64,000 nucleotides of DNA from positions 40,885 to 104,884 of the forward strand of contig JADFYJ010000007.1 of NCBI GenBank assembly GCA_015233115.1, in the 5' to 3' direction. The stretch is from Candidatus Omnitrophota bacterium. Its GTDB lineage: Bacteria > Omnitrophota > Gorgyraeia > Zapsychrales > Zapsychraceae. This document shows positions 8,441 through 55,288 of this stretch, in pieces. The notes under the pieces were generated by a model. It was given only the letters and a program-made list of their open reading frames with translations, was not told where the DNA came from and searched no databases. The translations under genes and the position numbers were made by a program. The stretch's first letter is position 1, and every line of letters starts with the position of its first letter.

Positions 8441-10411
8441 ATGAATACGATCGAAATTAAAAAAGTTAATAAAACTTATGGGACTGGCAAGATCGAAGTC
8501 CATGCTTTGCAGGATATTTCTTTGACGATCCAGCAGGGGGAATTTGTGGCGATCATGGGCGCTTCCGGATCTGGCAAGTCCACGCTGATGCATATTTTAG
8601 GCCTTTTGGACCGGCCTGATTCCGGCGAATATTTTCTCAATGGCCAGGAGGTCAGCAAGCTAACTGACCAAAATTGGGCTGTTTTACGCAACCAAAGCAT
8701 AGGTTTTGTATTTCAGCAATTTCATTTATTGGCTAGAATGAGCGCGTTCGATAACGTGGCCTTGCCATTGATTTACGGCGGAGACATGCAGTTAAAAGAT
8801 AATGCGCGGCTGCGGCTGATCGATGTTGGCTTAGAAGAGCGGATGAACCACAATCCCAATGAATTATCCGGCGGGCAGCAGCAGAGGGTGGCGATCGCCC
8901 GGGCCTTGATCCATGATCCATTGCTGATTTTAGCAGACGAACCAACTGGAAACCTGGATTCCAAAAGCAAGGAAGAAATTCTCGGTCTTTTTGAAAAATT
9001 AAATCAGCAAGGCAAAACTATTGTCATCGTGACTCATGAACCAGAAGTCGCGCGCCACGCCAAACGCGTCATTACTATGCGCGACGGAAAAGTGTTATCA
9101 GACATAACTTCAGCTCCACTAACTAAAGTTAAAATGACCAGCACAGCCCCTAATATCCCGCCTGCGCTTAAACCCGCAACAAAACAAAGCAGTATGAAAT
9201 TCCTGGATTATTCCCGGCAAGCTATCACCGCCATGATTGCTCATAAAATGCGCGCATTCTTATCCATTTTAGGAATTCTGATCGGCGTTGCCGCCGTAAT
9301 TGCCATGGTCGCGTTAGGCAGCGGAGCCCAGGAATCCATTGAGAAACAATTGGCGTCTTTAGGATCAAACCTTTTACTCGTTATGCCGGGATCATCCCAT
9401 GAGCATGGCGTATCTATGCAATCCGGCGCTAACACTAAATTTACTTTTCAAGATATTACGGCACTAAGTCAAGATTCGGAAAATATTGAACGTGTCAGTC
9501 CTGCAGTTTCCGGACGGACGCAAGTCGTATATGGTAGTAAAAACTGGAACACGTCCGTGGAAGGTTCTACCGCCAATTATGAACAGGTCAGAGCTGCCAC
9601 CCCTATGGCCGGTCGCTTTTTTACGGATGAAGAGGTCACCAGCCGCACCAAAGTTGTATTACTGGGAACAACCGTGGTTAAACAACTTTTTGATACAGAA
9701 GATCCTATCGGCAAAACCATTAAAATTAACCTCATCAATTTTCAAGTGATTGGCATTTTGCCCTCACATGGCGCAAACACGTTCCGTGACCAAGATGACA
9801 CGATGTTAGTTCCTATTACCACTGCCATGTACCGCTTGCTTGGCAAACAATATATTGATACAATCTACGTTCAAGCTCGGGGGCCACAGTTTGTTGATCC
9901 TGCGCAGGACGATATTGCCAAGATCATGAGTAAACAACACCATTTAGCTCCTAAAGATGAAGACAGCGCGTTTCAAGTTAGAAACATGAGTGATATGAAA
10001 GCCGCTTTAGAGTCCAGTACCAAGACTATGAGCATGCTCATTGGCGCGATCGCCGCGATTTCATTGCTGGTCGGTGGAATTGGAATCATGAACATTATGT
10101 TGGTTTCCGTTACAGAGCGAACCCGCGAAATTGGTTTGCGAAAAGCATTGGGTGCGAATAATAAAGATATTATGACCCAATTTCTAATTGAATCAATTTT
10201 GACCTCTTTAATCGGAGGGATATTAGGAATCATTGTGGGGACTGGAATTTCCGCGTTAATCACGATCGCGGCTGGCTGGGCGGTTAAAGTATCAATCATT
10301 TCGATGATCACCGCCACTTTGTTTTCCATGTTAGTTGGGCTTGTGTTTGGACTTTGGCCGGCACGGCAAGCATCTCGTTTAAATCCTATAGAAGCGTTGA
10401 GATATGAATAA
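8441..10411 (+). CDS. macB: MacB-type ABC transporter (fused ATPase and FtsX-like permease)
   Basis: Walker [10 protein letters not shown], the signature [15 protein letters not shown], and a C-terminal four-TM FtsX domain. The start is at MNTIEIKK; the track ORF extends upstream into the repeat. Confidence 0.85.
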
Positions 10412-11762
10412 AACTAAATTAACATTTATCTTTTTAATATTATTTTTTCTTTGTCAAAATAATATATCGAGAGCAGATCAACCTGCTCCGCAACAAATAG
10501 CAATTGTTCAGCAGTCCCTAAGTCTTAATGAAGCGATTCACTTTGCGTTGAAAAACAACCTCATCATGCGGTTAGCCAGGGAACGGATCAACGAAGCCAA
10601 AGGAAAAAGCACGTCCGGCAATTCTGATTTGTTGCCGCACATAGGCATAGAAGGGTATCAAATGAAAGTTCAGCGGTTTAATTTGCAAACCATGGGACTA
10701 CCCGGCCTTCTAGGGCCGTTCGACGCGTTTGATGCTCGTCTACAACTGGAACAACGGATCTTTGATTTGAGCGCCTTTTCTAAATCCAAAGCAGAAAACC
10801 TGGCGGTCGAAATCGCGCGTTATGGCGAAGATCTTGCTCACCGGCAGGTTATGACCCAAGCCATTATGGCGTATCTGAATGTTTTAAAGAATGCCGAATC
10901 GCTCAAAACCATTGATGAAAATATCAGCGTAGCCGAAAAATTTGTAAAACTTTCTGAACATCAACGGGCTGTCGGCATGGCCACTCAGGTTGATGAAGTC
11001 CGGGCAGAGACCCGTTTGGCGCAGGAAAAAGCGGCACGCGAAAAAATTTTATTTAATTTACAATCCGCGGATTTTAACCTGAAACGCGTGACTGGCATTG
11101 CCTTAGACTGCCCGTTACGCTTAACCGATACATTGCTATTTTTTGTCGAGCCTGCGTATCCGGTTCAAAAAACTCTTGATGAGGCATTCAATAACCGGGT
11201 AGAAATCACGATCGCGGAACAAAGAGTTGAGTATAAAAAATTAAAACTGCAGGAAGCTAAAAGCCTTCATCTGCCTAAGATATCATTAGTCGGTGATTAT
11301 GGAACATCAGGAGTTCGCATCAACCGGGACAAGCATGAAGTGGGAGAATTTGGCATCAAAGCCAGTTTCCCTATATTTGAAGGCGGAGCCATCGAAGGGC
11401 AGATCATGCAAGAAACCAGTATCAAGAAGCAGGAAGAAATGACCCGCGATGATGTGTCAATACAAATTGAAGAAGATGTCCGGTTATCTCTACAAATTCT
11501 TCAAACCAGCCTTCAAGCCGTATACGCGAATGACATTGCTCAAAAACTTTCTAGCCGTGAACTGGAATATACAAAAAATCAATATATCAATGGGCTGGAG
11601 GATAATTTAAAAGTCGATGCCGCGCAATCAGACCTTGCCCAAACCAAAGAAAACTATATAACCGCATTAGCTCAATATCATACCGGCCGGGTCAATTATT
11701 ATTCCGCGATTGGAAAATTAGAACAGTTCAGTCTTAATCAACCTGAGGTGAATCATGAGTAA
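10404..11762 (+). CDS. TolC-family outer membrane efflux protein
   Basis: Signal peptide and OEP repeats; overlaps the macB stop. Confidence 0.75.
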   Translation: MNKTKLTFIFLILFFLCQNNISRADQPAPQQIAIVQQSLSLNEAIHFALKNNLIMRLARERINEAKGKSTSGNSDLLPHIGIEGYQMKVQRFNLQTMGLPGLLGPFDAFDARLQLEQRIFDLSAFSKSKAENLAVEIARYGEDLAHRQVMTQAIMAYLNVLKNAESLKTIDENISVAEKFVKLSEHQRAVGMATQVDEVRAETRLAQEKAAREKILFNLQSADFNLKRVTGIALDCPLRLTDTLLFFVEPAYPVQKTLDEAFNNRVEITIAEQRVEYKKLKLQEAKSLHLPKISLVGDYGTSGVRINRDKHEVGEFGIKASFPIFEGGAIEGQIMQETSIKKQEEMTRDDVSIQIEEDVRLSLQILQTSLQAVYANDIAQKLSSRELEYTKNQYINGLEDNLKVDAAQSDLAQTKENYITALAQYHTGRVNYYSAIGKLEQFSLNQPEVNHE

Positions 11763-12624
11763 AGAAAAAATTAAAGGATTATTACAAAATAAAAAAATCT
11801 TACGCATTTTAATCGTCATCGGTGTTATCGCGGTCATCGGGATCGTCTTAGCCATCAAAAGCCTGGGAGAAGTAACAACGGATGACGCGTTTATTGAAGG
11901 GCATATTATTCCCATCAGCCCTAAAGTAGCGGGATATGTCATAAACATTAATGTCAAAGATAATCAATTGATCAAAGCCGGATATCCATTAATCCTGATT
12001 GATGATAAAGATTACGCGATCAAAGTGGCTTCTGCCGCGGCTGACCTAAAAGCCGCTGAAGCTGAACTTCAACAAGCTAAAGAAGACGCAGACCGTTTTA
12101 AAAAACTGTTTGAAACCGGCGATGTTTCCCAACAGCAATTAGATAAAGCCGCTTTACGAGTCAATATTGCTGACGCCCAAACCTCTGCTAAAGAAGCCGC
12201 CTTGAACCAGGCACAGCTTAATTTATCGTATACAAAAATTACTGCTCCGGCTGACGGGCAAGTAACGCGAAAATCAACCGAAGAAGGGGCATACTTACAG
12301 CCCGGCCAAGTGATTATGGCCATTGTGCCTCCTGAACGCTGGGTGGTGGCTAATTTAAAAGAAACCCAATTAACCCATATTAAACCCGGCCAAAAAGTTT
12401 CCATTAAAATTGACGCTTATCCTCATAAAATATGGCACGGGCATGTGGATAGTGTTCAGCGCGGCACAGGCAGTAAATTCAGCCTTTTGCCGTCAGAGAA
12501 CGCCACAGGCAATTTCATAAAAGTTGTCCAACGTGTCCCGGTCAAAATTTTGATTGATGATGCCATTGATTCAACGACAATATCTTTAGGCATGTCCGTT
12601 GTCCCGACAATAAAAATCGAATAA
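11755..12624 (+). CDS. HlyD-family membrane fusion protein (EmrA-like)
   Basis: Single TM, coiled-coil segment and HlyD beta-barrel region. Confidence 0.75.
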   Translation: MSKEKIKGLLQNKKILRILIVIGVIAVIGIVLAIKSLGEVTTDDAFIEGHIIPISPKVAGYVININVKDNQLIKAGYPLILIDDKDYAIKVASAAADLKAAEAELQQAKEDADRFKKLFETGDVSQQQLDKAALRVNIADAQTSAKEAALNQAQLNLSYTKITAPADGQVTRKSTEEGAYLQPGQVIMAIVPPERWVVANLKETQLTHIKPGQKVSIKIDAYPHKIWHGHVDSVQRGTGSKFSLLPSENATGNFIKVVQRVPVKILIDDAIDSTTISLGMSVVPTIKIE

Positions 12625-12628
12625 ATTC

Positions 12629-14218
12629 ATGGCTATAACACCTGAAGACACAACAGCCGCCCCTTTACCTGACCCTAACCGCTGGATGATCGCGATGGCG
12701 GTTATGTTCGGCGCTGTTATGGCTGTTATGGACATCAGTGTCGTTAATGTGGCTCTGCCGCATATGATGGGGAATTTCGGACAAAATATTTCTTCCATCA
12801 CCTGGGTCGCGACCGCGTATAGTATCGCGGCCGTTATTATGGTCACCATGTCCAATTGGTGGTCCACGTTACTCGGCCGAAAATATTTTTATCTGCTGTC
12901 CTTTGTCATTTTTACAGTCGGTTCAATTCTGTGCGGCTTTGCCCACACTTTTCCGGAAATGATCATTTACCGCATTATTCAAGGGATAGGGGGAGGCAGC
13001 CTCATCCCGATCGCGCAAGCTATTATCCGCGAAACTTTTCCCAGAAAAGAACAAGGCATGGCTATGGCTGTTTTTTCCATGGGTGTAGTCGTTGCTCCGG
13101 CTATCGGGCCGGTGCTCGGCGGCTGGCTGACTGACCAGCTAGGCTGGCCCTGGATTTTTTTCATTAATATCCCTATCAGCATTATCGGCATGTTTTTAGT
13201 TTGGCTTTATGTGCATGACCCTGTATATCTCCGCCGAGGAATACAGAAAGTTGATGTGCCAGGAATTGTGTTATTAACATTAGGATTGACAGGCTTACAG
13301 ACCATATTAGAACGCGGACAACAGGAAAACTGGTTTGACTCCAATTTTATTGTATGGGGAACCATTTTTACCATAACGACGTTAACACTGCTTGTTCTCT
13401 GGGAACTACGCGTCAAAGAACCCATTGTCAATTTTAGAGTATTTAAAAACGAACAATTCAGTTTAGGCTGTATGGTCATATTTTTATTCGGTATCGCTTT
13501 GTTCGGAACCACATTTATTTTGCCGCAATTTACTCAACGGCTTTTAAATTATCCCGCGTTCCAGGCCGGCCTGACACTCATGCCCCGCGCGATCGCCCTG
13601 ATCATTGTGCTTCCGCTGGTAGGAAAACTATATAATCACAGCGATCCGCGCGCTTTAATGCTATTCGGCATTGTTGTTGTCTGCATTTCCTATTTTCAGT
13701 TAGCGCATTTGGCTACGATAGCTGGTTCAAGCAACATTATCAGTATTTTACTTTTAATGGGTGCAGGCATGCCTTTTTTATTTATTCCTCTGTCTACACT
13801 GACTTTAAATTCTGTGCCCAAGGAAAGCTCAACTGCCGCGACCGGATTATTTAATCTCACTCAGCAAATAGGAGGGAATGTCGGTTACGCGCTCATGGCG
13901 ACACTGCTCGACCGTTTTTCTACAATACACCATGCCTATTTATCCGAAAATATTAGTCCATATAATCCCAATTACACTCTGTTCGCCCAACAAGCATCAG
14001 CCACACTAGCCTCCAAAGGCATGGCCGCAGGAGGGCAAGGACAATCCAGTATTCTCGCGATCGTCAATCGCCTAGTCACCCAACAAGCAGAGATGATGGC
14101 CTACAACGACCTTTCCATCGTCCTCATGTTTCTTTTCCTATGCTGCATCCCGCTCATCATAATCATGCGCGCCCCTAAAGGAGGCATGCATTCCAATCCG
14201 CATGTCGGAGAAATGTAA
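12629..14218 (+). CDS. MFS transporter, DHA2 (EmrB/QacA) family, 14 TMS
   Basis: DISVVNVALPHM motif, a GxLaDrxGrkxxl-like motif and about 14 hydrophobic segments. Confidence 0.8.
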   Translation: MAITPEDTTAAPLPDPNRWMIAMAVMFGAVMAVMDISVVNVALPHMMGNFGQNISSITWVATAYSIAAVIMVTMSNWWSTLLGRKYFYLLSFVIFTVGSILCGFAHTFPEMIIYRIIQGIGGGSLIPIAQAIIRETFPRKEQGMAMAVFSMGVVVAPAIGPVLGGWLTDQLGWPWIFFINIPISIIGMFLVWLYVHDPVYLRRGIQKVDVPGIVLLTLGLTGLQTILERGQQENWFDSNFIVWGTIFTITTLTLLVLWELRVKEPIVNFRVFKNEQFSLGCMVIFLFGIALFGTTFILPQFTQRLLNYPAFQAGLTLMPRAIALIIVLPLVGKLYNHSDPRALMLFGIVVVCISYFQLAHLATIAGSSNIISILLLMGAGMPFLFIPLSTLTLNSVPKESSTAATGLFNLTQQIGGNVGYALMATLLDRFSTIHHAYLSENISPYNPNYTLFAQQASATLASKGMAAGGQGQSSILAIVNRLVTQQAEMMAYNDLSIVLMFLFLCCIPLIIIMRAPKGGMHSNPHVGEM

Positions 14219-14233
14219 TAAAAGCAGTATGTA

Positions 14234-14270
14234 AATCCTTTCTAAATCCTTTCTAAATCCTTTCTAAATC
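14234..14270 (+). repeat. Tandem 11-bp repeat (aaatcctttct), about 3.4 copies
   Basis: Read directly from the sequence, downstream of the MFS stop. Confidence 0.8.
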
Positions 14271-14303
14271 AATTGCTGAAAATTTGTATTCATATTAGAA
14301 TAT

Positions 14304-14963
14304 GTGCCTATGAAAGAGCGACACATTCTTATTTCTGATTTTGACGGCACTATGACCAAATATGATTTTTATGATTTGGTCTGCGCGGAATTTCCAGAGA
14401 TTGCCGGAACTTATTGGCATCAATATGAAGAAGGGAAGATTACGCATTTTGAAGCCTTACGATCGATATTTGCCGGTATACGCGCGGACGAATCACGCCT
14501 TTTAAAAATAATAGAAAAAATGCAGATTGAACCAAAATTATTGGCATGCGTGGCTGATCTCCATAAATCCGGTTGGGAAATTACCGTTGCCTCAGCCGGC
14601 TGTGACTGGTATATTAAACGCCTTTTAAAAACTGCTCAGGTATCTATAAACGTCTATGCCAATCCGGGTGAATTTTATCCGGATAAAGGACTGCTGATGA
14701 GATTGCCTGAAAGATCACCATTTTTTTCACCTGATCTAGGCGTCAACAAAGTCGCGGTCGTGCGTGATGCTTTAAACCGATCAAATGTCGTGGCATTCGC
14801 TGGCGATGGTAGGCCAGATCTGGCTCCGGCACTACTGGTACCAGCTAAACGACGTTTCGCGAAAAGCTGGTTAGCGCAAAAACTCAAAGAAATAGGGGAA
14901 GACTTTCAGCCATTTATCCAATGGTCGGAGGTGGCCCAACAACTGCAAAAAAATAAATTATAA
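14304..14963 (+). CDS. HAD-IB family hydrolase (MtnX-like phosphatase)
   Basis: ISDFDGTMT motif I (DxDGT) with later HAD motifs (SAGCD..., AGDGRPD). Confidence 0.6.
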   Translation: MPMKERHILISDFDGTMTKYDFYDLVCAEFPEIAGTYWHQYEEGKITHFEALRSIFAGIRADESRLLKIIEKMQIEPKLLACVADLHKSGWEITVASAGCDWYIKRLLKTAQVSINVYANPGEFYPDKGLLMRLPERSPFFSPDLGVNKVAVVRDALNRSNVVAFAGDGRPDLAPALLVPAKRRFAKSWLAQKLKEIGEDFQPFIQWSEVAQQLQKNKL

Positions 14964-14976
14964 AAGCGATTGATGC

Positions 14977-15108
14977 GGGCGATCAGGAGATCGCCCCTAC
15001 GAAGGACATAATGTCCGCGTAGTACTGGAGGCACCTGCGAGCAGCACAAAAATGTACATGATTTAAAAAAATAATCGTAATTTCGTAGGGGAGATCTCCT
15101 GATCTCCC
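14977..15108 (+). promoter_or_regulatory. GATC-rich double palindrome: hairpin gggcgatc-agga-gatcgccc + ctacgaa ... ttcgtag + hairpin gggagatc-tcct-gatctccc
   Basis: Two self-complementary 20-bp hairpins that are also near reverse complements of each other, with 7-bp complementary flanks. Four GATC sites fall within them. The spacer holds further small palindromes (ggacataatgtcc, atgtacat). The element lies between the HAD gene and the G1P dehydrogenase gene. Confidence 0.65.
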
Positions 15109-15150
15109 GTAACAAAATTATCGTTTTAAAAAACGAAAGAAAGATACCGC

Positions 15151-16197
15151 GTGAAAACTACTTCCATTTCTATACCAACTTTAGTCCGCATTAAACGCGG
15201 TGCGCTTGACCGGCTGGGAGTTTATGCCCGACGAAACCAGCTATACAAAGTCGTATTATTTTATAACAAAGAATTAGACCCTGCTTTGGTCGAACGCGTT
15301 GATGAAGCCATGCACGAAGAAGGCATAGAAATACTTCAACATTTCGAAGTCGTTTCCTCATCGTTTGACCAGGCCCAGGAACTTTTCCAGGCCATGCCGT
15401 CATCCGCTAATGCCATTTTCGCTTTCGGCGGGGGGAAAGCTCTGGACATCGCGAAATACGTTGCTTTTCTCGGACAAATACCTTATGTTGCTTCGCCTAC
15501 GGCATTATCAAACGACGCATTTTGCAGTCCTCAATCCAGCCTGGAATTTAAAGGCAAAAAACGTTCATTTCCCGCAGCCATTCCGTATGGCGTAGTCATT
15601 GACACGGAAGTCTGCTTAAACGCGCCCATGATCCTGTGGCTGTCCGGAATAGGAGACTTGGTTTCAAAGATCACCGCGGTTTACGACTGGAAATTGGCCC
15701 ATAAAATTAAAGGCACACAAGTCGACGATTTTGCCGCGTTGCTTTCCGATGCTACCGTATTTCAACTTATGGCCAAACCTGAGCATGATCTGGACGGGAT
15801 AAAATTATTAGGCACAGCACTCATGTTAAACGGCATTGCCATGGCCATATGCGGATCATCGCGGCCCGCGAGCGGAAGCGAACATTTAATCTCGCATGCC
15901 TTAGATCAAATCTGTAAAAAACCGCGATTACACGGTTTACAAGTTGGCACAGCGACCTATTTAATTAGTCAATTGCAAGGGCAAGGAACCACAAAAATCG
16001 CTAAACTTCTTGATGACACCGGATTTTGGGATATGATTAAAACTGATCCATTTATAAAAGAAGAATGGGTGGCTGCTTTCAAAATGGCGCCAACAATTAA
16101 AAATGATTTTTATACAATCTTATCTGAAAAAGACCAGGTGCCTGATTTGATCAAAATCATGGAAACAGACCCTCGGTTGAAAAACATTTTTACTTAA
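15151..16197 (+). CDS. egsA: sn-glycerol-1-phosphate dehydrogenase (EgsA/AraM family, iron-containing alcohol dehydrogenase fold)
   Basis: GGGKALDIAKYVA and PTALSNDAFCSP motifs match the G1PDH family; GTG start. Confidence 0.65.
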   Translation: MKTTSISIPTLVRIKRGALDRLGVYARRNQLYKVVLFYNKELDPALVERVDEAMHEEGIEILQHFEVVSSSFDQAQELFQAMPSSANAIFAFGGGKALDIAKYVAFLGQIPYVASPTALSNDAFCSPQSSLEFKGKKRSFPAAIPYGVVIDTEVCLNAPMILWLSGIGDLVSKITAVYDWKLAHKIKGTQVDDFAALLSDATVFQLMAKPEHDLDGIKLLGTALMLNGIAMAICGSSRPASGSEHLISHALDQICKKPRLHGLQVGTATYLISQLQGQGTTKIAKLLDDTGFWDMIKTDPFIKEEWVAAFKMAPTIKNDFYTILSEKDQVPDLIKIMETDPRLKNIFT

Positions 16198-16199
16198 CT

Positions 16200-16802
16200 A
16201 TGACCATACTCGAAAATATTTTTCCACCTCCGACTATAAATGGATTTTTTGGCGATAGCGCGTCATTTTATTTTATCCTAAATTTATCAATTCTTATCTG
16301 GCTTGTAATCGTTTTAAGGAGCCGCGCCTTTTTAATAAAATCAAATCAATTCCAAACTGATAAATTTCAAACAAGCGTATTTCATTCCTTAATAATAGTC
16401 ATGCTGCTTATCAATTTGGCCCAACTCATTCAACACCAAAACTATTTTCGCGCATTTTATAATGCGCTAGCAAGAAAAGAAACTCCGGAAAAACTTAAAT
16501 ACATGATCGGCTTTCCCTATAAATTTGCCGTAAACTGCCGGAGTAAATATATAAATGGTCACACTAATGGCCGTTTACTGACAGACTGGGATATACAAAG
16601 TAATCCTGGCATGACCTACCAGAGGGAAATCGCCTATTACATTTATCCCATTAAAATTCGAGGAAATAATACAAATATTAAACCTGATTATTTAGTTTTT
16701 TTTGATAAAACTAATGCGGAATCCTTAGTTCCGGCTAACTATGTCATTAAAGTTAAAATGGATGAGCAAAATTTATTAGCAGTGAGGAAGGATTTGTTCT
16801 AA
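16200..16802 (+). CDS. Hypothetical membrane protein (2 N-terminal TMs)
   Basis: ORF with hydrophobic N-terminal segments; no recognised domain. Confidence 0.45.
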   Translation: MTILENIFPPPTINGFFGDSASFYFILNLSILIWLVIVLRSRAFLIKSNQFQTDKFQTSVFHSLIIVMLLINLAQLIQHQNYFRAFYNALARKETPEKLKYMIGFPYKFAVNCRSKYINGHTNGRLLTDWDIQSNPGMTYQREIAYYIYPIKIRGNNTNIKPDYLVFFDKTNAESLVPANYVIKVKMDEQNLLAVRKDLF

Positions 16803-18196
16803 TGATCTGGTTGCGCGTGCTATTCAGTTTTTTAATTCCGGTTTTTCTTGGCATTCAATGCTTGAAATTGATCCTTCAAAATCAAAAATTAGACAAGCTA
16901 TTAACATTGGCATTAGCCTACGGCTTAGGCTGGGGCATATTGACGCATACAATGCTTATCATTGGAATACTTCGAATCCCTTACACATTTTTTAACCTTA
17001 TTGTTGCTTTGGCAGCAGTAAGTTTGATATTATTTTTATCCCTCCGGCTAATTCCCGCCAGACGTGAAGAGATAACCACCTCCCCCACAAATATTGACCC
17101 CGATATTTCTCGCGTTAACATATTTTTTAAATTTGCTATTTATTTTTTTCTGGCCTATTACTCCATTTTTTTAATCTGGTGGAGTTTGAATATTCCCGTC
17201 TACGAATGGGATTCTCTGGCCACCGCTGCGTATAACGCAAAAATATTATTCTTTGAAAAAAATTTATCCGCCCAACAATATTTTGCGCATCAAGCCTATC
17301 CATTATTTGTTCCGTTTGTCTTTACTTGGTTTTCAATTTGCTTAGGCGTATGGGAAGACCAAATCGTAAGATTATTTTTTCCAATTTTATTTTTCATGTT
17401 TGCGATTATATTTTATAACACACTTAAACAGCTCACCTCCCGCGCTAAAGCTCTTATAGGATTATTTATATTAACCTCGTCAAATTTTCTCATGTGGCAA
17501 GCCGGTTCAACCTATCGTGATCTTCCCATGATGTACTTTTTTTGCACAACAGTTTTTTTATTAGTCTTATGGCAAAAGAGCCAAAAAGAAACGTATTTTC
17601 AAATTGCGTCTATTTTTAGCGCCTTCGGAACGTTTGTCAAACTAGAGGGAACCGCCTATTTTGGCCTCACCATCCTGCTGGCCGCCTATATTCTTATACA
17701 AGACAAAACGCTTAGTCTAAAAATAAAAATCAAAAACATATTAAAGTATGCCTATCCCGGAATTCTATTATGCGGAATATATTCCCTATACAAAATTTTC
17801 GCGGGTTATCTCGCCACCGAATATTTACAATACAATTTCGCGCATATTGAATACTATTTTACAAATTCAATTCGCGCCTTTTTCAGCGCCATGTTTTTTA
17901 CTGCTAACTGGAATATCGTTTGGCAAATTTTATTTGTGGGGATTTTCATTAATTTTCATAAAATTAAAACTAACTTTTCGTTAAAAACTCTATTTTTAAC
18001 TTTAATGCTTTTTATAGGATTGTATTTAACTCTGGCGACCATCAGTGGCGCCCAAGTTCCTTATACATCTCCGTTCGGTTTATCACGTTTTCTGATCCAT
18101 TGTTTTCCCATTTCCGTCATCCTTATTGTCCTGCTTTTCGATAACGATATTTCATTGAACCAAGAAACAAAAACTACAAAGGAGAGAGCATCATGA
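16802..18196 (+). CDS. Polytopic membrane protein, possible GT-C (ArnT/PMT-like) glycosyltransferase
   Basis: More than 10 predicted TMs, and an acidic YEWDS motif in the first extracytoplasmic loop as in GT-C enzymes. Confidence 0.4.
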   Translation: MIWLRVLFSFLIPVFLGIQCLKLILQNQKLDKLLTLALAYGLGWGILTHTMLIIGILRIPYTFFNLIVALAAVSLILFLSLRLIPARREEITTSPTNIDPDISRVNIFFKFAIYFFLAYYSIFLIWWSLNIPVYEWDSLATAAYNAKILFFEKNLSAQQYFAHQAYPLFVPFVFTWFSICLGVWEDQIVRLFFPILFFMFAIIFYNTLKQLTSRAKALIGLFILTSSNFLMWQAGSTYRDLPMMYFFCTTVFLLVLWQKSQKETYFQIASIFSAFGTFVKLEGTAYFGLTILLAAYILIQDKTLSLKIKIKNILKYAYPGILLCGIYSLYKIFAGYLATEYLQYNFAHIEYYFTNSIRAFFSAMFFTANWNIVWQILFVGIFINFHKIKTNFSLKTLFLTLMLFIGLYLTLATISGAQVPYTSPFGLSRFLIHCFPISVILIVLLFDNDISLNQETKTTKERAS

Positions 18197-18825
18197 TTGA
18201 TTTTGTCATCCATATTCAACGGCATTTACATGAAATTATCCAACATTTTGGAGTATGGTCGTACTTAATTTTATTTTTAATTGTTTTTTGCGAAACCGGT
18301 TTAGTCGTAACGCCATTTTTGCCGGGTGATTCACTATTATTTACAGCCGGCACTTTTGCCGCGATCGGTTCATTTAAAGTACTCTGGCTATGGGCTATTT
18401 TAGTACTGGCCGCCATACTCGGGGACAACACTAATTATTTTATTGGTAAAATATTTGGCGAACGATGGATCAAAAACGAGAAATCAAAATTGTTTAAAAA
18501 AGAAAATATTGAAAAAACCCACGGGTTCTTTGAAAAATATGGAGGGAAAACGCTTATTCTAGCGCAGTTTGTCCCAATAATCAGAACCTTTGCCCCGTTT
18601 GTCGCCGGCGTAGGCTTAATGAGCTATAAAAAATTCTTATTTTTTAACGTCAGTGGTGTGCTGTTATGGGTCAGTTTGTTTGTCTTTGGCGGATATTATT
18701 TCGGAAACATCCCCATCGTCAAAGAACATTTTTCTGTCGTAATCTTAATGATCATCGTCATATCCATGCTCCCCGCGGTGTGGGAAATTTACAAAGCCAG
18801 GAGTCACAAATCAGGCCAAAAGTAA
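18193..18825 (+). CDS. DedA/TVP38 family membrane protein
   Basis: VTPFLPGDSLLFTAG and GKTLILAQFVPIIRTFAPFVAG motifs. Confidence 0.8.
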   Translation: MIDFVIHIQRHLHEIIQHFGVWSYLILFLIVFCETGLVVTPFLPGDSLLFTAGTFAAIGSFKVLWLWAILVLAAILGDNTNYFIGKIFGERWIKNEKSKLFKKENIEKTHGFFEKYGGKTLILAQFVPIIRTFAPFVAGVGLMSYKKFLFFNVSGVLLWVSLFVFGGYYFGNIPIVKEHFSVVILMIIVISMLPAVWEIYKARSHKSGQK

Positions 18826-41379: not shown

Positions 41380-42084
41380 ATGAAAGTAACTCTTTTAATT
41401 CCGACTTTAAATGAAATCGACGGCATGAAAACTATTATGCCCAAGGTTAAACGCGAATGGATCGATCAGATCCTGGTCGTTGATGGGCAATCCACTGACG
41501 GAACTGCTGACTATGCGCGAGCGCAAGGTTATGATGTGGTCATCCAACAGCAAAAAGGCATCCGCCACGCTTACATGGAAGCTTTGCCGCACATTCAAGG
41601 CGATATTATTCTGACCTTTAGTCCGGATGGAAATTCAATTCCCGAATTGATCCCGGAGTGTCTCAATAAAATGAAAGAAGGATACGATATGGTTATCGTA
41701 TCTCGCTACGCCAAAGGCGCGAAAAGTTATGATGATGATGCCATTACCGCTTTTGGAAATAAAGTTTTCACCACTTCAATCAGTTTATTACATGGTTTTC
41801 CCTATACTGACGCCATGGTCATTTACCGGGCCTACAAAAAAAGTTTAATCACTGAACTCGATCTAGATAAAGATGAAAGTTATGCCTTTCCAGAAAAACT
41901 ATTTAATACTAAAATAAGCTGGGAACCGTTATTATCGATTAGAGCGGCAAAACGTAAATTAAAGATCGCCGAAATTCCTGGAGATGAACCAGTCCGCGAA
42001 GGCGGCGAACGCAAACTCCAAGTCATGAAATGGGGCGCGGCATACATGTATCAAGTGATCAGTGAAGTATTTATTTGGAAGTAA
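41380..42084 (+). CDS. Glycosyltransferase family 2 (dolichyl/polyprenyl-phosphate sugar synthase-like)
   Basis: LLIPTLNE...VVDGQSTDGT...SPDGN GT2 motifs. Confidence 0.7.
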   Translation: MKVTLLIPTLNEIDGMKTIMPKVKREWIDQILVVDGQSTDGTADYARAQGYDVVIQQQKGIRHAYMEALPHIQGDIILTFSPDGNSIPELIPECLNKMKEGYDMVIVSRYAKGAKSYDDDAITAFGNKVFTTSISLLHGFPYTDAMVIYRAYKKSLITELDLDKDESYAFPEKLFNTKISWEPLLSIRAAKRKLKIAEIPGDEPVREGGERKLQVMKWGAAYMYQVISEVFIWK

Positions 42085-42103
42085 AAAGGAAAAATACATT
42101 AAT

Positions 42104-43099
42104 ATGAAACATATATCAATTATCGGCGACGGCGGGTGGGGGACCACTTTAGCTGTTCATTTGGCAAAAAAAAATTATTCCATCAAACTCTGGGGAGCGT
42201 TCGCGCCTTATGTGGCGGAAGTATCGCAAACCCGGATTAATTCAAAATTTTTACCCGGCATAAGATTACCGGTGAGTATTGAATTATCTTCTGACCTCAA
42301 ATATATATTATCCCAATCAGACCTTTGGGTATTTGCCGTGCCATCCAAATATGCGGCGGATGTGTTAAAGCAGATTAAATCTTCCAAAATTAATTTACAT
42401 GGGAAAACCATAGTCAGCGTAACTAAAGGGTTAGATACCAAAACTCTTAAACGCATGTCCGAGATCATAGCAGATCAACTCCAAGGGATACAAGTTGCTG
42501 TCTTATCCGGGCCGACGATTGCCATGGAAGTCGCGCAAGGAATCCCGTCCACTGCCGTCGTTGCGTCTAAAAAGTTAAGCACAGCTAAAGCCATTCAAGA
42601 AATCTTTAATTCTTCGACCTTCCGCATTTATACCAATACAGATGTTATCGGTGTTGAGCTGGGAGGAACTGTAAAAAATATTATCGCGATAGCTTGCGGT
42701 GTATGCGACGGATTAAAATTCGGCACAAATACCAAATCTGCCATTGTCACCCGCGGCTTGGCAGAAATGTCCCGGCTGGGAAAAGCCATGGGCGCCAAAC
42801 AACGCACCTTGATCGGTTTAACCGGTTTAGGTGATCTGGTTACAACCTGTTTTAGCCCGCGCAGTCGCAACCGCACCTTTGGTGAACAACTGGGTTCTGG
42901 AAAAAAAGCCAAAGATATTTTAGCGTCTATGGAAATGGTAGCAGAGGGAGCGGAGTCTGTTCAAGCTGTGCATAAACTGAGTCAAAAACTCGACGTATCC
43001 ATGCCGATTACAACCGAAGTTTTCAATATCGTGTACAAAGACAAAAACCCGATGCAAGCTGTGACAGATTTAATGACTCGCAAAACGAAATCCGAATAA
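42104..43099 (+). CDS. gpsA: NAD(P)H-dependent glycerol-3-phosphate dehydrogenase
   Basis: ISIIGDGGWGTTLA Rossmann motif and conserved GpsA blocks (VTKGL, GLGDL). Confidence 0.85.
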   Translation: MKHISIIGDGGWGTTLAVHLAKKNYSIKLWGAFAPYVAEVSQTRINSKFLPGIRLPVSIELSSDLKYILSQSDLWVFAVPSKYAADVLKQIKSSKINLHGKTIVSVTKGLDTKTLKRMSEIIADQLQGIQVAVLSGPTIAMEVAQGIPSTAVVASKKLSTAKAIQEIFNSSTFRIYTNTDVIGVELGGTVKNIIAIACGVCDGLKFGTNTKSAIVTRGLAEMSRLGKAMGAKQRTLIGLTGLGDLVTTCFSPRSRNRTFGEQLGSGKKAKDILASMEMVAEGAESVQAVHKLSQKLDVSMPITTEVFNIVYKDKNPMQAVTDLMTRKTKSE

Positions 43100-50223: not shown

Positions 50224-50297
50224 CGGAGCGTAGCGCAGCTGGCTAGCGCACTAGTATGGGGTACTAGTGGTCGAGAGTTCGAATCTCTCCGCTCCGA
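50224..50297 (+). tRNA. tRNA-Pro (anticodon GGG)
   Basis: Acceptor cggagcg/cgctccg, anticodon stem ctagt/actag, loop atggggt, T-loop ttcgaat. Confidence 0.85.
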
Positions 50298-50362
50298 CTT
50301 TTTCAACTTTGTACTCTCTACTTTGCGTACTCTGTACTTTAACCTTCAGAAAAGGATGTCCT

Positions 50363-50782
50363 ATGGGATTCTTTGGAAAAGAAACACCTAAAAGCCCGAG
50401 CTCTGATAATCACATTGACAGACGGCATTATCCCAGATTTCAAAAAAATTTTATTTTGAAATATTTTCCTAAAGATAACCCCGCAGATAAAATTGAAACA
50501 ACTCAGCTAAAAAATATCAGCTTTGGAGGGATGTGTTTTATTACCTGCCGAAGATTTGATAAGGGCACAGAACTGCTTCTGGAATTACAAACACCTTATC
50601 TTTCTGAAGTCACTTATTTAGAAGGAGAAGTTCAAGAATCACGTCAAAAAGTTTCGGATATACTATTTGAAACACGTTTAAGTTTAAAAAATATGACCCC
50701 ACAGGCAGAATTTCTGATCGGCAAAATGGTTGAGTTCTTCGCCAATGAAGAAAAGAAAAAAAAGGCAGAAAACCATGAATAA
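50363..50782 (+). CDS. PilZ domain protein
   Basis: RRHYPRF...NISFGGMCF matches the RxxxR / (D/N)xSxGG c-di-GMP-binding motifs. The track ORF's upstream extension overlaps tRNA-Pro and is rejected. Confidence 0.55.
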   Translation: MGFFGKETPKSPSSDNHIDRRHYPRFQKNFILKYFPKDNPADKIETTQLKNISFGGMCFITCRRFDKGTELLLELQTPYLSEVTYLEGEVQESRQKVSDILFETRLSLKNMTPQAEFLIGKMVEFFANEEKKKKAENHE

Positions 50783-52064
50783 AATCAATATCGGTCTTAT
50801 TGGCTTTGGAACAGTCGGTTCCGGGGTCGTAGAGTTTCTTCACACGAAAAAATCTTATATAGCCAATAAATACAACACAGAATTTACGGTTAAAACTGTA
50901 TGCGACTTGTACATTACGCCAGATAAAGTGAAAAAATTCGGAAAAATCAAGACTACAAAAAAATATCAGGAAATCCTCGAAGATCCGGAAATTGATGTGG
51001 TCGTTGAACTGATCGGCGGATTGCATCCAGCCAAAGAAATTGTATTTGGCTCGCTCAATAATGGTAAAGATGTGGTCACGGCTAACAAAGCTTTAATTTC
51101 GCATCACGGGAAAGAATTATTCGAACTTGCTCAGCAAAACGGATTACGACTGTTTTTTGAATCAGCAGTCATGGCGGGTGTACCGACCATTAAAACTGTT
51201 ACTGAAGGCATTATTGGCAATGAATTTAACGGGATCTACGGCATTTTAAACGGTACTTGCAATTATATTCTGACTCAAATGTCAGATAACAACTGTTCTT
51301 TCCCAGACGCGCTTAAGAAAGCTCAGGAGAAAGGTTATGCCGAAGCCGACCCTACGCTCGACATCAGCGGAGGGGACACAGCGCATAAACTTTTAATTAT
51401 GGCCTACTTGGCTTTTGGGAAATTTATCAAATTCAATGAAATTTATACAGAAGGTATTTCGCAAATCTCGCAGAACGATATTGAATACGCGGAACGTTTA
51501 GGTTTAACCATTAAATTATTAGCCATAGCCAAAAAAGTAAATAATACCATTGAAGCACGAGTTCATCCAACGTTGATTCCCAAAGAGCATCCTTTGGCAT
51601 CAATCAATAGCGTCTTTAATGGCATGTTATTAGACTCAGACATGCTGGGTAAAGTGCTATTATCTGGGGAAGGCGCAGGCAAAATGGCAGCCGCTTCAGG
51701 CGTAGTCAGTGACCTCATCAATTTAGCGCATAATCCGGCTCAGCCGATTTTGTCCAATTTAACATATGAAAATAAAGCCTTAACCGTAAAGAAGATCGAC
51801 GATGTGATCAGCAAATTTTATTTACGTTTGCTCGCTGTTAATAAACCCGGCGTTTTATCAAAAATTACCGGAATATTAGGTAAACACGACATCAGCATCA
51901 ATTCTGTGACGCAAAAAGAACAAGACGCCAAATCACCGGTTCCGGTTATTATGCTGACAGACAGCACCTCTGAACGAAATATGCGCAACGCTCTAAAAGA
52001 AATTGAAAAAATGGCTGTAATCAAAAGCAAGCCGGTAGCGATTAGAATGGAGACTTTACAATGA
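50775..52064 (+). CDS. hom: Homoserine dehydrogenase
   Basis: [16 protein letters not shown]-binding motif, a conserved catalytic region and a C-terminal ACT domain. The start is approximate (MNKINIG). Confidence 0.85.
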
Positions 52065-53113
52065 AGTGGACAGGTTTAATTAATAAATACCGTGAATTTT
52101 TACCCGTCACAGATAAAACTCCGGTTGTCACTTTAAATGAAGGAAACACGCCGCTCATTTCATCTCCATACTTTTCTTCTCTAACCGGCATGGAAGTTTA
52201 TTTAAAATATGAAGGGCTTAACCCAACCGGATCATTTAAAGACCGCGGTATGACCATGGCGATTTCCAAAGCTAAAGAAGAAGGCGTTAAAGCGGTCATG
52301 TGCGCGTCAACCGGCAATACCTCTGCATCAGCGTCCGCTTACGCGGCGAGGGCAGGGATGAAAAGTTTTGTGCTGATCCCAGACGGCAATATCGCGCTCG
52401 GCAAACTCGCGCAAGCCATGATTCACAATGCCACGGTTATTGCCATCAAAGGCAATTTTGATCAGGCCCTGGAAATGGTGGTAGAGGTCACTAAAAAATA
52501 TCCAATCGCGTTAGTTAATTCGATCAATCCGTTCCGTATTGAAGGACAAAAAACCGCAGCTTTTGAAATTTGCGATTTTCTGGATGATGCGCCTGAGTTC
52601 CATGCCATTCCAGTCGGAAATGCCGGCAATATTACGGCCTATTGGAAAGGTTATAAAGAATATAAACAAGTTGGAAAATCAAAACAGCTTCCCAAAATGC
52701 TGGGATTTCAGGCCGCAGGTTCCGCGCCGATAGTACTTGGTCATCCGGTTAAGAAACCTGAAACCATTGCCACAGCGATTAAAATTGGCAATCCGGCCAG
52801 CTGGAAATTTGCTGAAGCCGCGCGCGATGAGTCCAAAGGTTTAATTGACATGGTCACAGACGATGAAATTTTGGAAGCTTATAAACTTTTAGCCAAATTC
52901 GACGGAGTTTTTGCTGAACCGGCATCAGCCGCATCCGTTGCTGGCATCATTAAATTGAATAAAAGCGGGTATTTTAAAGGCCAAAAAGGGCGTATCGTGT
53001 GCACATTAACCGGCCACGGCTTAAAAGATCCCAATATCGCGTTAAAATGCGTTGGTGAACCAATGGTCATTAATCCTGACATGAACGAACTTATAAAAAC
53101 TATCGGAATATAA
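52061..53113 (+). CDS. thrC: Threonine synthase
   Basis: PLP-binding SFKDRG motif and fold-type II PLP enzyme blocks. Confidence 0.85.
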
Positions 53114-53116
53114 AAA

Positions 53117-53335
53117 GTCACAAAGACACAAAGTCACAAGGTCACAAAGGGAAATAAAGATAATAAAAGCAATTAATAAAAAAAATGCAAACATTTAAAT
53201 TATTAAGAAGTCGCGTTTAGTTTTTCATAAAATTTAAACAAATACTTTTTTGAAAGCGAATATAGATTTAATTTTTGTTATTCTATTTTTCATTTCTTAA
53301 ACATTGTGACTTTGTGACCTTGTGTCTTTGTGACC
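53117..53335 (+). repeat. Inverted oligo-repeat pair (gtcacaaagacacaaagtcacaaggtcacaaagg / ttgtgactttgtgaccttgtgtctttgtgacc) flanking a 150-bp AT-rich spacer between thrC and coaB
   Basis: Reverse-complement arms with about two mismatches, read directly. Confidence 0.75.
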
Positions 53336-53342
53336 TCTAAAT

Positions 53343-53993: not shown

Positions 53994-54057
53994 ATTTTTA
54001 TATTTTATTTTTTGACCAAAAACCATCAACCAAAAACCATTAGATTTTTATATTAAA

Positions 54058-55260: not shown

Positions 55261-55288
55261 ATCCGAATTAAAGAAGAAAGGAAGACGC

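Follow-up and report, generated by a model that had tools for sequence, protein, structure and literature searches.

A conserved HAD phosphatase and glycerol-1-phosphate dehydrogenase-family gene pair suggests a candidate route to glycerol in bacteria

The sn-glycerol-1-phosphate (G1P) dehydrogenases (G1PDHs; EC 1.1.1.261), represented by archaeal EgsA and Bacillus subtilis AraM, catalyse reversible reactions, and AraM feeds PcrB, leading to heptaprenylglyceryl phosphate. In the B. subtilis arabinose operon, the gene directly upstream of araM is araL, which encodes a HAD phosphatase of subfamily IIA (NagD-like). Polyol-phosphate dehydrogenases are also paired with HAD phosphatases in yeast (Gpd1 with Gpp1/2), in the Dunaliella PSP–GPDH fusion, whose phosphatase domain is of the phosphoserine-phosphatase (HAD-IB) type, and in Acinetobacter baylyi MtlD. 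Two further groups of systems bear on the locus described here: ArnC/ArnT and three-component glycosylation, which combines a GT2 enzyme, a flippase and a GT-C glycosyltransferase (for example, CsbB/GtcA/YfhO), and the DedA family (Escherichia coli DedA, YghB and YqjA; UptA).

Here we analyse five genes, all on the plus strand, in a 64,000-nucleotide stretch of DNA (the window) from a Candidatus Omnitrophota MAG. A preliminary description had named a HAD-IB phosphatase, a G1PDH, a GT-C-like protein and a DedA protein among their products and had proposed that the dehydrogenase, two membrane proteins and DedA act in one G1P-based envelope pathway. The open reading frames (ORFs) were confirmed at their coordinates and the family names were upheld by profile searches, but the single pathway is without comparative support. 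The region very probably consists of three independent units lying side by side: HAD with G1PDH, a 200-amino-acid (aa) protein with the GT-C protein, and DedA. On the fuller explanation, in which the first unit also forms glycerol, our confidence is evenly divided.

A phosphatase–dehydrogenase gene pair across bacterial phyla

The first gene (14304–14963, plus strand) is an ORF of 219 aa encoding a HAD-IB phosphatase of the MtnX-like branch; the deposited protein (P0130) has 217 aa, so the true start is probably the ATG at 14310. The product scores 58.6 bits against TIGR01488 (cut-off 45) and 73.2 bits against TIGR01489, slightly below the cut-off of 81.55. Residues D12, D14, T16, S97, K149, D168 and D172 of HAD motifs I–IV are invariant across 20 family members. 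The enzyme is of the small, soluble, C1-cap, MtnX-like type, and its relatives use small phosphomonoesters as substrates.

The second gene (15151–16197, plus strand; 348 aa) encodes an EgsA/AraM-type NAD(P)-dependent dehydrogenase that matches the G1PDH model NF002022 at 229 bits over residues 2–328, whereas the runner-up, a glycerol dehydrogenase model, covers just the N-terminal domain, at 61.6 bits, and the aroB model reaches 18 bits. By these profile scores the protein belongs to the G1PDH family and not to the glycerol dehydrogenases or 3-dehydroquinate synthases, as first described. It shares family and fold with EgsA and AraM, with a full-length profile match, a glycine-rich NAD(P) motif, Asp/His/His metal ligands and the SRPASG(S/G)EH motif in common; its metal ligands and SRPASGSEH sequence agree with archaeal G1PDH, and its catalytic motifs, including GIGDLVSKITAV.DWKLA and SSRPASGSEHLISHALD, are shared or near-identical with those of Methanocaldococcus jannaschii G1PDH. 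GGGK, D169, H245, H249 and H261 are invariant within the G1PDH clade. Unlike EgsA and AraM, however, the window protein falls in a bacterial clade, its nearest structure is an uncharacterized Clostridium acetobutylicum protein (3ce9, 234 bits), ahead of archaeal G1PDHs 5fb3 (134 bits) and 4rgq (129 bits) and the distantly related, fifth-ranked G1PDH entry 9h4x (87 bits), and its conserved partner is a HAD-IB phosphatase, with no GGGPS or PcrB gene nearby. Because its score of 229 bits lies below the NF002022 equivalog cut-off of 413 bits and its clade is known from sequence, we infer the substrate rather than read it from the match.

We sampled 80 species genomes encoding a close G1PDH relative, 77 of which carry enough upstream sequence for the neighbouring gene to be judged. 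A full-length HAD homologue lies directly upstream of the G1PDH gene, on the same strand, in 68 of the 77, among them Omnitrophota, Verrucomicrobiota, Kiritimatiellia, Planctomycetota, Elusimicrobiota and a few other lineages; the linkage first noticed in the window is therefore genuine. With start codons as assigned in this analysis, the HAD stop and G1PDH start overlap by 1–11 nt in 57 of these 68 genomes, and the identities of the two proteins to their window counterparts co-vary (r = 0.89). Other neighbours vary (queA/tgt, AcrB, GlnRS, a P-type ATPase and others), each occurring in at most 9 of the 80 loci; no third gene is conserved beside the pair in this survey, nor is any glycerol-related gene conserved near it. 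A search of 150 representatives returned no clean HAD–G1PDH fusion. By this comparative evidence, HAD and G1PDH are an autonomous two-gene unit, usually with predicted translational coupling.

The window itself departs from this arrangement. Whereas the two genes overlap or abut in other genomes, here they are 187 nt apart, and the gap contains a very stable hairpin. This is an inverted-repeat element (14970–15115) inserted between the genes, with 34-nt arms that are 88% complementary and a 78-nt spacer; its predicted RNA fold has an energy of −72.6 kcal/mol (z = −7.95). It matched no Rfam family and occurs once in the window.

The pair has the same HAD-then-G1PDH order as araL–araM, although its phosphatase belongs to a different HAD subfamily from AraL. 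It recalls the polyol precedents in closely coupling a ketose-phosphate reductase with a HAD-superfamily phosphatase. In contrast to those systems, the window dehydrogenase belongs to the G1PDH type, which is unrelated to theirs; the intermediate would then be G1P, the opposite enantiomer to glycerol-3-phosphate (G3P), and the pair consists of two genes rather than a fusion.

The downstream membrane-protein genes

Two membrane proteins are encoded next. The 200-aa protein (16200–16802, plus strand) combines two predicted transmembrane (TM) helices with an alpha/beta domain at its C terminus; it is missing the N-terminal TM helix of its homologues, and it matched no Pfam or NCBIfam profile. It adjoins a gene (16802–18196, plus strand) for a 464-aa GT-C-fold, PMT_2/ArnT-like membrane glycosyltransferase (PF13231, 32.7 bits; cut-off 26.1). 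Structure prediction with AF2 served the two unequally: the 464-aa model is good (pLDDT 80.9, pTM 0.85), and its top 16 PDB matches in Foldseek are all GT-C proteins (STT3, ArnT at TM 0.50, EmbB, AftA and Pmt), whereas the 200-aa model is poor (pLDDT 51). Invariant residues of the 464-aa family are P132, D137, K147 and Y166-P167-L168; the conserved acidic residue, first placed in the first loop, is D137, and the loop that holds it follows the fourth helix.

Homologues of the GT-C protein are rare, with 9 among 5.8 billion proteins. A homologue of the 200-aa protein is encoded directly 5′ of the GT-C homologue in loci L003 (36% identity) and L085, the two are fused in protein P0124 (28% identity to its N-terminal 216 aa), and tblastn recovered the same order in five further metagenome loci. 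Of 15 loci with the GT-C module, 7 have a GT2 gene no more than 4 kb away, and the three GT2s scanned (L003, L085 and L087) have PgfS, ArnC, AglJ and dolichyl-P-hexose transferase as best families; a DegT aminotransferase is present at one locus. A point against the separateness of the module is that base composition does not set it apart as foreign (GC3 of 0.33 and 0.38; window mean 0.40, s.d. 0.04). Fusion and adjacency are observed directly, and by this comparison the two genes are a separate, rare two-gene module.

The GT-C protein would transfer a sugar from a polyprenyl-phosphate carrier to an envelope acceptor on the periplasmic side, with the 200-aa protein serving as its membrane-anchored accessory domain. 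By a weak link, one candidate maker of the donor is a GT2 of the polyprenyl/dolichyl-phosphate-hexose synthase type encoded 23 kb away (41380–42084, plus strand; PF00535, 54.6 bits), whose best NCBIfam matches are AglJ, dolichyl-phosphate hexose transferase and ArnC and which, along its entire length, shares 29% identity with the GT2 next to the pair in L085. The GT-C fold and the recurring GT2 resemble ArnC/ArnT-type systems. Unlike these and the three-component systems, the 464-aa protein has no large periplasmic or C-terminal periplasmic domain and is accompanied instead by a membrane partner of its own, the 200-aa protein; a GtrA-type flippase was not seen, and the window GT2 is not adjacent to the GT-C gene.

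The last gene (18193–18825, plus strand; 210 aa) encodes a DedA-family protein with a VTT domain (NF008102, 273.7 bits, cut-off 236; PF09335, 73.5 bits). It differs from the UptA undecaprenyl-phosphate transporters in matching their NCBIfam models weakly (49–51 bits against cut-offs of 250–300). In the closest relative the order is MFS–HAD–G1PDH–FMN reductase–DedA: a 65%-identical DedA orthologue occupies the matching position, and the FMN reductase fills the slot that here holds the 200-aa and GT-C genes, with no GT-C there. Among the 80 G1PDH loci, DedA follows G1PDH only in this relative. DedA is a syntenic neighbour, without a comparative tie to G1PDH or the GT-C module.

Candidate roles of the pair

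The window also carries canonical gpsA, the gene for NAD(P)-dependent G3P dehydrogenase (42062–43099, plus strand; PF07479, 193.9 bits; PF01210, 143.2 bits), as first reported, and G3P supply is therefore separate from G1PDH. Equally, the absence of a visible ether-lipid synthase held up: a scan of 45 window ORFs of 150 aa or more, all outside 50267–50782 and 58430–61054, turned up no GGGPS, DGGGPS, PcrB or UbiA-type family.

We tentatively propose, as a reading somewhat short of probable, that the pair converts dihydroxyacetone phosphate (DHAP) through sn-G1P to glycerol, apart from the G3P lipid-precursor pool. G1PDH would reduce DHAP with NAD(P)H to sn-G1P, and HAD would hydrolyse this to glycerol and phosphate; the outcome would be a glycerol-forming branch acting as a redox or overflow valve or as a solute supply. 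Running via the G1P enantiomer, the branch would leave intact the G3P pool that gpsA makes for phospholipids. The intact HAD catalytic motifs and the archaeal-like G1PDH ligands favour this route; against it, having one enzyme undo what its co-translated partner has just made seems a waste unless the cell is after glycerol itself, and the pair has neither a conserved glycerol-related neighbour nor a known clean fusion among the representatives searched.

An unlikely, though still sizeable, alternative is that the pair provides the sn-G1P that enzymes encoded elsewhere build into a lipid or head group, candidates being PlsY/PlsC, yielding G1P-backbone phospholipids, or a CDP-alcohol transferase, with HAD dephosphorylating a later product or setting the G1P pool. 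In vitro, G1P is a substrate for the PlsY and PlsC enzymes of B. subtilis and E. coli, and several bacteria are reported to contain phospholipids with a G1P backbone (PMC13400652). The identity of 57–79% among G1PDH relatives across phyla would suit a core biosynthetic role, and in seven genomes, three of them from Myxococcota, G1PDH occurs with no HAD next to it. However, across the 80 loci the pair never has a conserved lipid gene as its neighbour, the small soluble phosphatase has relatives that act on small molecules, and translational coupling to the G1P-making enzyme better fits direct use of G1P.

We regard as improbable a catabolic or salvage role, in which G1P from phosphatidylglycerol head groups, lipoteichoic-acid-type polymers or archaeal lipids meets one of two fates: the dehydrogenase oxidizes it to DHAP, or HAD removes its phosphate for recovery. 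The reversibility of G1PDH reactions would allow this, many carriers are polymer-degrading heterotrophs, and some 3 kb downstream the window encodes a phosphate transporter and a PhoU-like protein. Yet two fates for a single substrate would not explain why the genes are translationally coupled 1:1, and the pair has no transporter, phosphodiesterase or kinase gene as a conserved neighbour.

The single pathway of the preliminary description, in which G1PDH, the 200-aa protein, GT-C and DedA, with HAD upstream, add a G1P-derived group to the envelope or make an unusual head group, draws on the compactness of the locus. The gaps between the four genes are +2, −1 and −4 nt and no convincing terminator was found between them, so they are probably co-transcribed in this genome, which leaves room for a lineage-specific link; DedA proteins are, moreover, tied to polyprenyl-phosphate carrier recycling. 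But the 200-aa and GT-C genes are absent from all 80 related G1PDH loci, none of the 15 GT-C-module loci carries HAD, G1PDH or DedA at E ≤ 1e-4, and the recurrent partner of the module is instead a polyprenyl-phosphate-sugar GT2. To our knowledge, GT-C enzymes take lipid-linked sugar donors and not soluble G1P. As the proposal had been made to depend on conservation of the neighbourhood in related genomes, the conservation test largely refutes it, and we consider it very improbable.

Least probable of all is a look-alike substrate such as D-3-phosphoglycerate, whose C2 configuration is that of sn-G1P, with the HAD-IB enzyme as the corresponding phosphatase, such as a phosphoserine phosphatase, of a non-canonical pathway: the sub-equivalog G1PDH score and sequence-assigned clade, the phosphoserine phosphatases within HAD-IB and a weak alignment to SerB structure 3n28 (21.9 bits) would allow it, but the active-site motifs are near-identical to those of crystallized archaeal G1PDH and SerB models score just 14–20 bits against cut-offs of 144–413.

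We found no description of the HAD–G1PDH pair in the searchable literature. It is a moderate lead, and its conservation across phyla may point to a so far undescribed route of glycerol formation.

The phosphatase–G1PDH gene pair across genomes

The gene for the 348-aa dehydrogenase of the glycerol-1-phosphate dehydrogenase (G1PDH) family (15151–16197, + strand) has a single conserved partner, the HAD-IB phosphatase gene (14304–14963, + strand; 219 aa) upstream of it. A scan at one genome per species returned 354 genomes with a G1PDH relative, and we analysed the best 80 of these 354 loci, in which the enzyme is 57–79% identical to the window protein. They are labelled Omnitrophota, Verrucomicrobiota (Opitutia, Chthoniobacterales and Terrimicrobiaceae), Kiritimatiellia, Planctomycetota and Elusimicrobiota/Endomicrobiales, together with single metagenome-assembled genomes labelled Balneolales, Armatimonadota, Riflemargulisbacteria and Desulfobulbaceae, and three Myxococcota. 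Neighbouring genes were located by tblastn with the window proteins, and 77 of the 80 loci had enough upstream sequence for this comparison. In 68 of the 77, the gene immediately before G1PDH on the same strand encodes a full-length HAD homologue; two more carry C-terminal HAD remnants, and the phosphatase is missing beside G1PDH in the other seven (three Myxococcota, where the neighbours are SelO and a chemoreceptor, and four Verrucomicrobiota). With start codons assigned by ourselves, the HAD stop overlaps the G1PDH start by 1–11 nt in 57 of the 68 loci; such overlap is the signature of translational coupling. Loci whose phosphatase is closer to the window copy also tend to have a closer dehydrogenase (r = 0.89 between the two identities). 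By adjacency and overlap alike, dehydrogenase and phosphatase are genetically coupled across these taxa. Clustering of all flanking ORFs within 8 kb in the 80 loci revealed no other conserved neighbour; the commonest, each found in at most 9 of the 80, are the housekeeping genes queA, tgt and those for an AcrB-type pump, GlnRS and a P-type ATPase.

In one Omnitrophota group (loci L007, L009, L010, L011, L016, L017, L020 and L026) the pair sits directly upstream of tgt in all eight cases, with queA just upstream of the pair in four (L007, L009, L017 and L020); a 150-aa AIG2/gamma-glutamylcyclotransferase-like gene (five loci) and a HAMP-HD-GYP protein (three loci) also occur alongside. This gene order is not seen in other lineages, and we therefore take it as a lineage-specific placement and not as a functional link. 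Gene fusions were also sought, and no clean HAD–G1PDH fusion was present among the best 150 of 671 representatives of the phosphatase family. The database protein P0313 joins a HAD domain to a fragment matching G1PDH residues 87–155; because the G1PDH N terminus is missing, a frameshift or an incomplete gene call is the probable explanation. Seemingly long ORFs in high-GC loci lie in other frames.

The preliminary description had the HAD gene preceding a cluster in the window. It does lie ahead, but a 187-nt spacer sets it apart from the G1PDH gene. This gap holds a 146-bp inverted-repeat element (14970–15115; 34-nt arms, 88% complementary, 78-nt spacer), single-copy in the window, with a predicted RNA fold of −72.6 kcal/mol (z = −7.95). 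As the HAD and G1PDH genes overlap in most other genomes, the element is a lineage-specific insertion, either MITE-like or an RNA hairpin affecting coupling. Rfam searches around the HAD gene, inverted repeat included, gave no match at E ≤ 1 and thus no riboswitch or other known RNA. Upstream, 3.5 perfect copies of the 11-mer TAAATCCTTTC form a tandem repeat (14232–14270) that ends 34 nt before the HAD start and, with its one-helical-turn phasing, resembles an array of sites at which a winged-helix regulator would bind. In the closest relative the 11-mer repeat is absent, and the gap between the MFS transporter gene and HAD is only 10 nt.

Elsewhere in the window, one same-strand row (50730–56512) encodes homoserine dehydrogenase, a threonine-synthase-like PALP enzyme, a DFP-domain protein, an ApgM-type protein (cofactor-independent phosphoglycerate-mutase-like, PF10143) and aspartate kinase. 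Phosphoglycerate-mutase-like proteins in such a gene context have been proposed as substitute homoserine kinases.

Family and active site of the two enzymes

The dehydrogenase scored best against NF002022, the NCBIfam model of EgsA/AraM-type G1PDH (229.1 bits, residues 2–328). This full-length match is clearly ahead of that to the glycerol dehydrogenase model, which covers only the N-terminal domain (61.6 bits, residues 15–174), and of that to aroB (18.1 bits), so the protein groups with neither glycerol dehydrogenase nor 3-dehydroquinate synthase. The G1PDH assignment of the preliminary description therefore holds, yet for a divergent member of the family: the score stays below the equivalog cut-off of 413, and we accordingly file the protein as a G1PDH-family enzyme of a divergent bacterial clade, short of a proven EgsA equivalog. 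The closest solved structure (3ce9, 234 bits) is that of a Clostridium acetobutylicum protein that structural genomics entered in the PDB as ‘glycerol dehydrogenase’; next come the archaeal G1PDHs 5fb3 and 4rgq/4rfl (129–134 bits) and the G1PDH entry 9h4x (87 bits). Named GldA-type glycerol dehydrogenases in the PDB reach at most 47 bits, against 87–134 bits for the named G1PDH entries.

At the residue level, the glycine-rich dinucleotide motif (G93-G94-G95-K96), D169, H245, H249 and H261 do not vary across 11 sequences of the clade, and both the Asp/His/His metal ligands and the G1PDH-type C-terminal motif are present, the latter as SSRPASGSEHLISHALD in the window protein aligned with SSRPASGSEHLFSHALD in Methanocaldococcus jannaschii 4rgq. 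Like this motif, three other catalytic segments are near-identical to M. jannaschii G1PDH (PTALSNDAFCSP versus PTTASNDGIASP, GIGDLVSKITAVYDWKLAHKIKG versus a 23-residue stretch of the archaeal enzyme, and LHGLQVG versus LHGEQCG). On the strength of this homology, we predict a G1PDH-type active site.

The phosphatase passes the HAD-IB model TIGR01488 (58.6 bits, cut-off 45) and falls just below the cut-off of the MtnX-like subfamily model TIGR01489 (73.2 bits, cut-off 81.55). It did not reach the MtnX equivalog models (40.9 and 31 bits, cut-offs 292 and 303) or the SerB models (20.2 and 13.7 bits, cut-offs 413 and 144), and the only relatives with solved structures are distant (SerB, 21.9 bits; MtnX, 18.7 bits). 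The family is coherent: at E ≤ 1e-10 it comprises 1146 clustered proteins, and a threshold of E ≤ 0.001 gives 671 representatives. All four HAD motifs are intact: DxDxT (D12, D14, T16), S97, K149 and GDGxxD (D168, D172) are invariant in 20 sequences. The enzyme is small and soluble, has a C1 cap and is of a kind whose substrates are small phosphomonoesters. In the database protein P0279, a response-regulator receiver domain is fused to a HAD of the same family, a hint that certain organisms regulate the phosphatase.

Candidate roles of the pair

Where a free polyol is to be produced, the known design is to co-translate a phosphatase with the dehydrogenase whose product is a phosphate ester. 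Yeast Gpd1 works with Gpp1/2, Acinetobacter MtlD is a further example, and in Dunaliella a phosphoserine-phosphatase-like domain is fused to glycerol-3-phosphate (G3P) dehydrogenase. By analogy, the HAD–G1PDH pair would be a coupled polyol-phosphate dehydrogenase and phosphatase built on a G1PDH scaffold, that is, a known design in a new form. Given this design, the simplest mechanism is a glycerol route via sn-glycerol-1-phosphate (G1P), a plausible reading that we hold tentatively. The dehydrogenase would convert dihydroxyacetone phosphate (DHAP) and NAD(P)H to sn-G1P, and the HAD phosphatase would then split G1P into glycerol and phosphate. Passing through G1P instead of G3P would allow the phosphatase to spare, for lipids, the G3P made by gpsA, which the preliminary description had reported in the same window and which profile scanning confirmed (42062–43099, + strand).

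In the main alternative, the dehydrogenase would make G1P for lipids or head groups that are built elsewhere, the HAD enzyme then acting on a later product or setting the size of the G1P pool. We consider this rather unlikely yet plausible: PlsY and PlsC accept G1P, and phospholipids with a G1P backbone have been reported in several bacteria (PMC13400652). For classical ether lipids the preliminary description had seen no synthase nearby, and profile scanning agrees, with no PcrB/GGGPS or UbiA-type family in the 45 ORFs scanned, all from the window and 150 aa or longer. Across the 80 related loci, HAD alone is conserved within 8 kb of G1PDH. Two other readings of the pair, salvage of G1P and a look-alike substrate such as D-3-phosphoglycerate, are less likely still.

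The neighbouring GT-C module and DedA

The five ORFs from the HAD gene to DedA lie on the + strand where the preliminary description had placed them, and profile searches upheld its HAD-IB, G1PDH-family, GT-C and DedA assignments. Downstream of G1PDH follow a 200-aa protein (16200–16802), a 464-aa GT-C protein (16802–18196) and a 210-aa DedA-family protein (18193–18825). The gaps between these four genes are +2, −1 and −4 nt, we found no convincing terminator between them, and they are therefore probably co-transcribed in the window genome.

The 464-aa protein matches PF13231 (PMT_2, a GT-C family) at 32.7 bits (cut-off 26.1), and its AlphaFold (AF2) model is confident (pLDDT 80.9, pTM 0.85). 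The top 16 Foldseek matches of this model in the PDB are all GT-C enzymes (STT3, ArnT, EmbB, AftA and Pmt), with a best TM of 0.50 (ArnT), probabilities of 0.87–1.00 and weak E-values (0.016–0.85), so that profile and predicted fold both bear out the GT-C assignment. P132, D137, A140, K147 and Y166-P167-L168 are invariant in the family. The conserved acidic residue is not in the first loop, where the preliminary description had placed an acidic motif: in the predicted structure, D137 lies in the loop after the fourth helix (107–130), at the start of a juxtamembrane helix (137–151).

Homologues are few, with nine, the window protein included, among 5.8 billion clustered proteins. The 200-aa protein, which has no profile match, travels with the GT-C protein. 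At two loci (L003 and L085) the GT-C homologue starts inside a gene for 239 or 244 aa, the L003 product being 36% identical to the 200-aa protein (E = 5e-39). The 720-aa database protein P0124 is a fusion in which residues 1–216 align with the 200-aa protein (28% identity, E = 5e-23) and the remainder with GT-C. A metagenome scan gave 12 more GT-C loci, in five of which tblastn places a 200-aa homologue immediately upstream. In L084, the gene for P0124 (1000–3162) is immediately preceded by a second GT-C paralogue (2–946, truncated by the end of the contig); this paralogue is 33% identical to the window GT-C protein and 50% identical to P0124, which indicates a tandem duplication of the module. 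The window copy begins 2 nt past the G1PDH stop and lacks an N-terminal transmembrane helix of about 40 aa found in its homologues (L003 7285–8004, L085 7270–8004 and P0124 residues 1–216), which may mean a changed membrane topology or a truncated protein. Its structure model, built on an alignment of two sequences, was unusable (pLDDT 51, pTM 0.27).

Seven of the 15 GT-C loci have a GT2 gene no more than 4 kb away; the best family matches of the three GT2s scanned (L003, L085 and L087) are PgfS, ArnC (undecaprenyl-phosphate Ara4FN transferase), AglJ and dolichyl-phosphate hexose transferase. At one GT-C locus, genes for a DegT-type aminotransferase and a methyltransferase are present too. No GT2 adjoins the module in the window, where a 234-aa GT2 of the dolichyl/polyprenyl-phosphate hexose synthase type (41380–42084) overlaps the gpsA start by 23 nt and, aligned from end to end, shows 29% identity to the GT2 beside the module in L085. 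The module would work as a periplasmic glycosyltransferase of the ArnT/PMT-like kind, with a polyprenyl-phosphate-linked sugar as its substrate, donor and acceptor both being predictions, and the 200-aa protein may act as the accessory domain that larger GT-C enzymes carry within themselves. Set against ArnT/PMT-like three-component glycosylation systems, it appears to be a new member, unusual here in its split accessory protein.

The DedA assignment rests on PF09335 (VTT domain, 73.5 bits) and NF008102 (273.7 bits, cut-off 236). In the closest relative, GCA_015233195.1, whose G1PDH is 79% identical to the window protein, the upstream order is that of the window (two efflux systems, an MFS transporter, HAD and G1PDH); after G1PDH come a 192-aa FMN reductase, a DedA orthologue (65% identical) and type II secretion genes. 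In the second-closest relative (L002; G1PDH 73% identical), the pair is followed by a 2439-aa protein (9213–16532), which has only a weak PTS-HPr match. DedA is therefore a local syntenic neighbour, and what stands between it and G1PDH varies.

The preliminary description had suggested that G1PDH, the 200-aa protein, the GT-C protein and DedA may act together, for example in a G1P-using envelope pathway, a reading that its own test of conservation, run across the 80 related G1PDH loci, does not support: the 200-aa and GT-C genes stand beside G1PDH in none of the 80, DedA is near it only in the closest relative, and the 15 GT-C loci contain no match to HAD, G1PDH or DedA at E ≤ 1e-4. We retain it as a very unlikely alternative on account of the tight packing, the lack of a convincing terminator and an unremarkable base composition, which does not mark the module as recently acquired; its third-position GC (GC3) values of 0.33 and 0.38 (mean 0.40, s.d. 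0.04) do not support a foreign origin, and its low GC is mostly due to codon positions 1 and 2. Operon-like packing of G1PDH, GT-C and DedA in one genome can thus mislead without comparative checks.

Implications for bacterial G1PDH homologues

That some bacteria carry G1PDH homologues is established; these have been treated as a deep-rooted bacterial clan and, in ‘lipid divide’ arguments, serve as a sign of possible archaeal-type lipids (PMC6431249, PMC5059525). AraM, which feeds PcrB, is the sole bacterial G1PDH with an assigned role (PMC4244643). Our search, which covered few subscription journals, found no literature on the HAD–G1PDH pair, a G1P-specific phosphatase or the function of G1PDH in the PVC group.

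At least 68 species genomes, spread over several diderm phyla, keep the G1PDH gene tied to a phosphatase gene and to no other. This pairing points to a different kind of G1P use, the simplest being to form glycerol in isolation from the pool of G3P destined for lipids. A broader claim, possible but in our view somewhat doubtful, is that the pair is an undescribed, widespread bacterial route for deliberately making the ‘archaeal’ enantiomer of glycerol phosphate. As a DHAP-to-glycerol shunt, it would be orthogonal to the G3P lipid pool and spare it; as a controlled G1P source, it would supply heterochiral phospholipids in PVC-group and Elusimicrobiota bacteria. The widely conserved phosphatase–G1PDH pair of diderm bacteria is a clear, testable lead. 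If the glycerol reading holds, a new two-enzyme path to glycerol would become available and inferences about heterochiral membranes drawn from gene presence in the carrier phyla would need revision; under either version of the broader claim, a bacterial G1PDH homologue alone would be no indicator of archaeal-type ether lipids.
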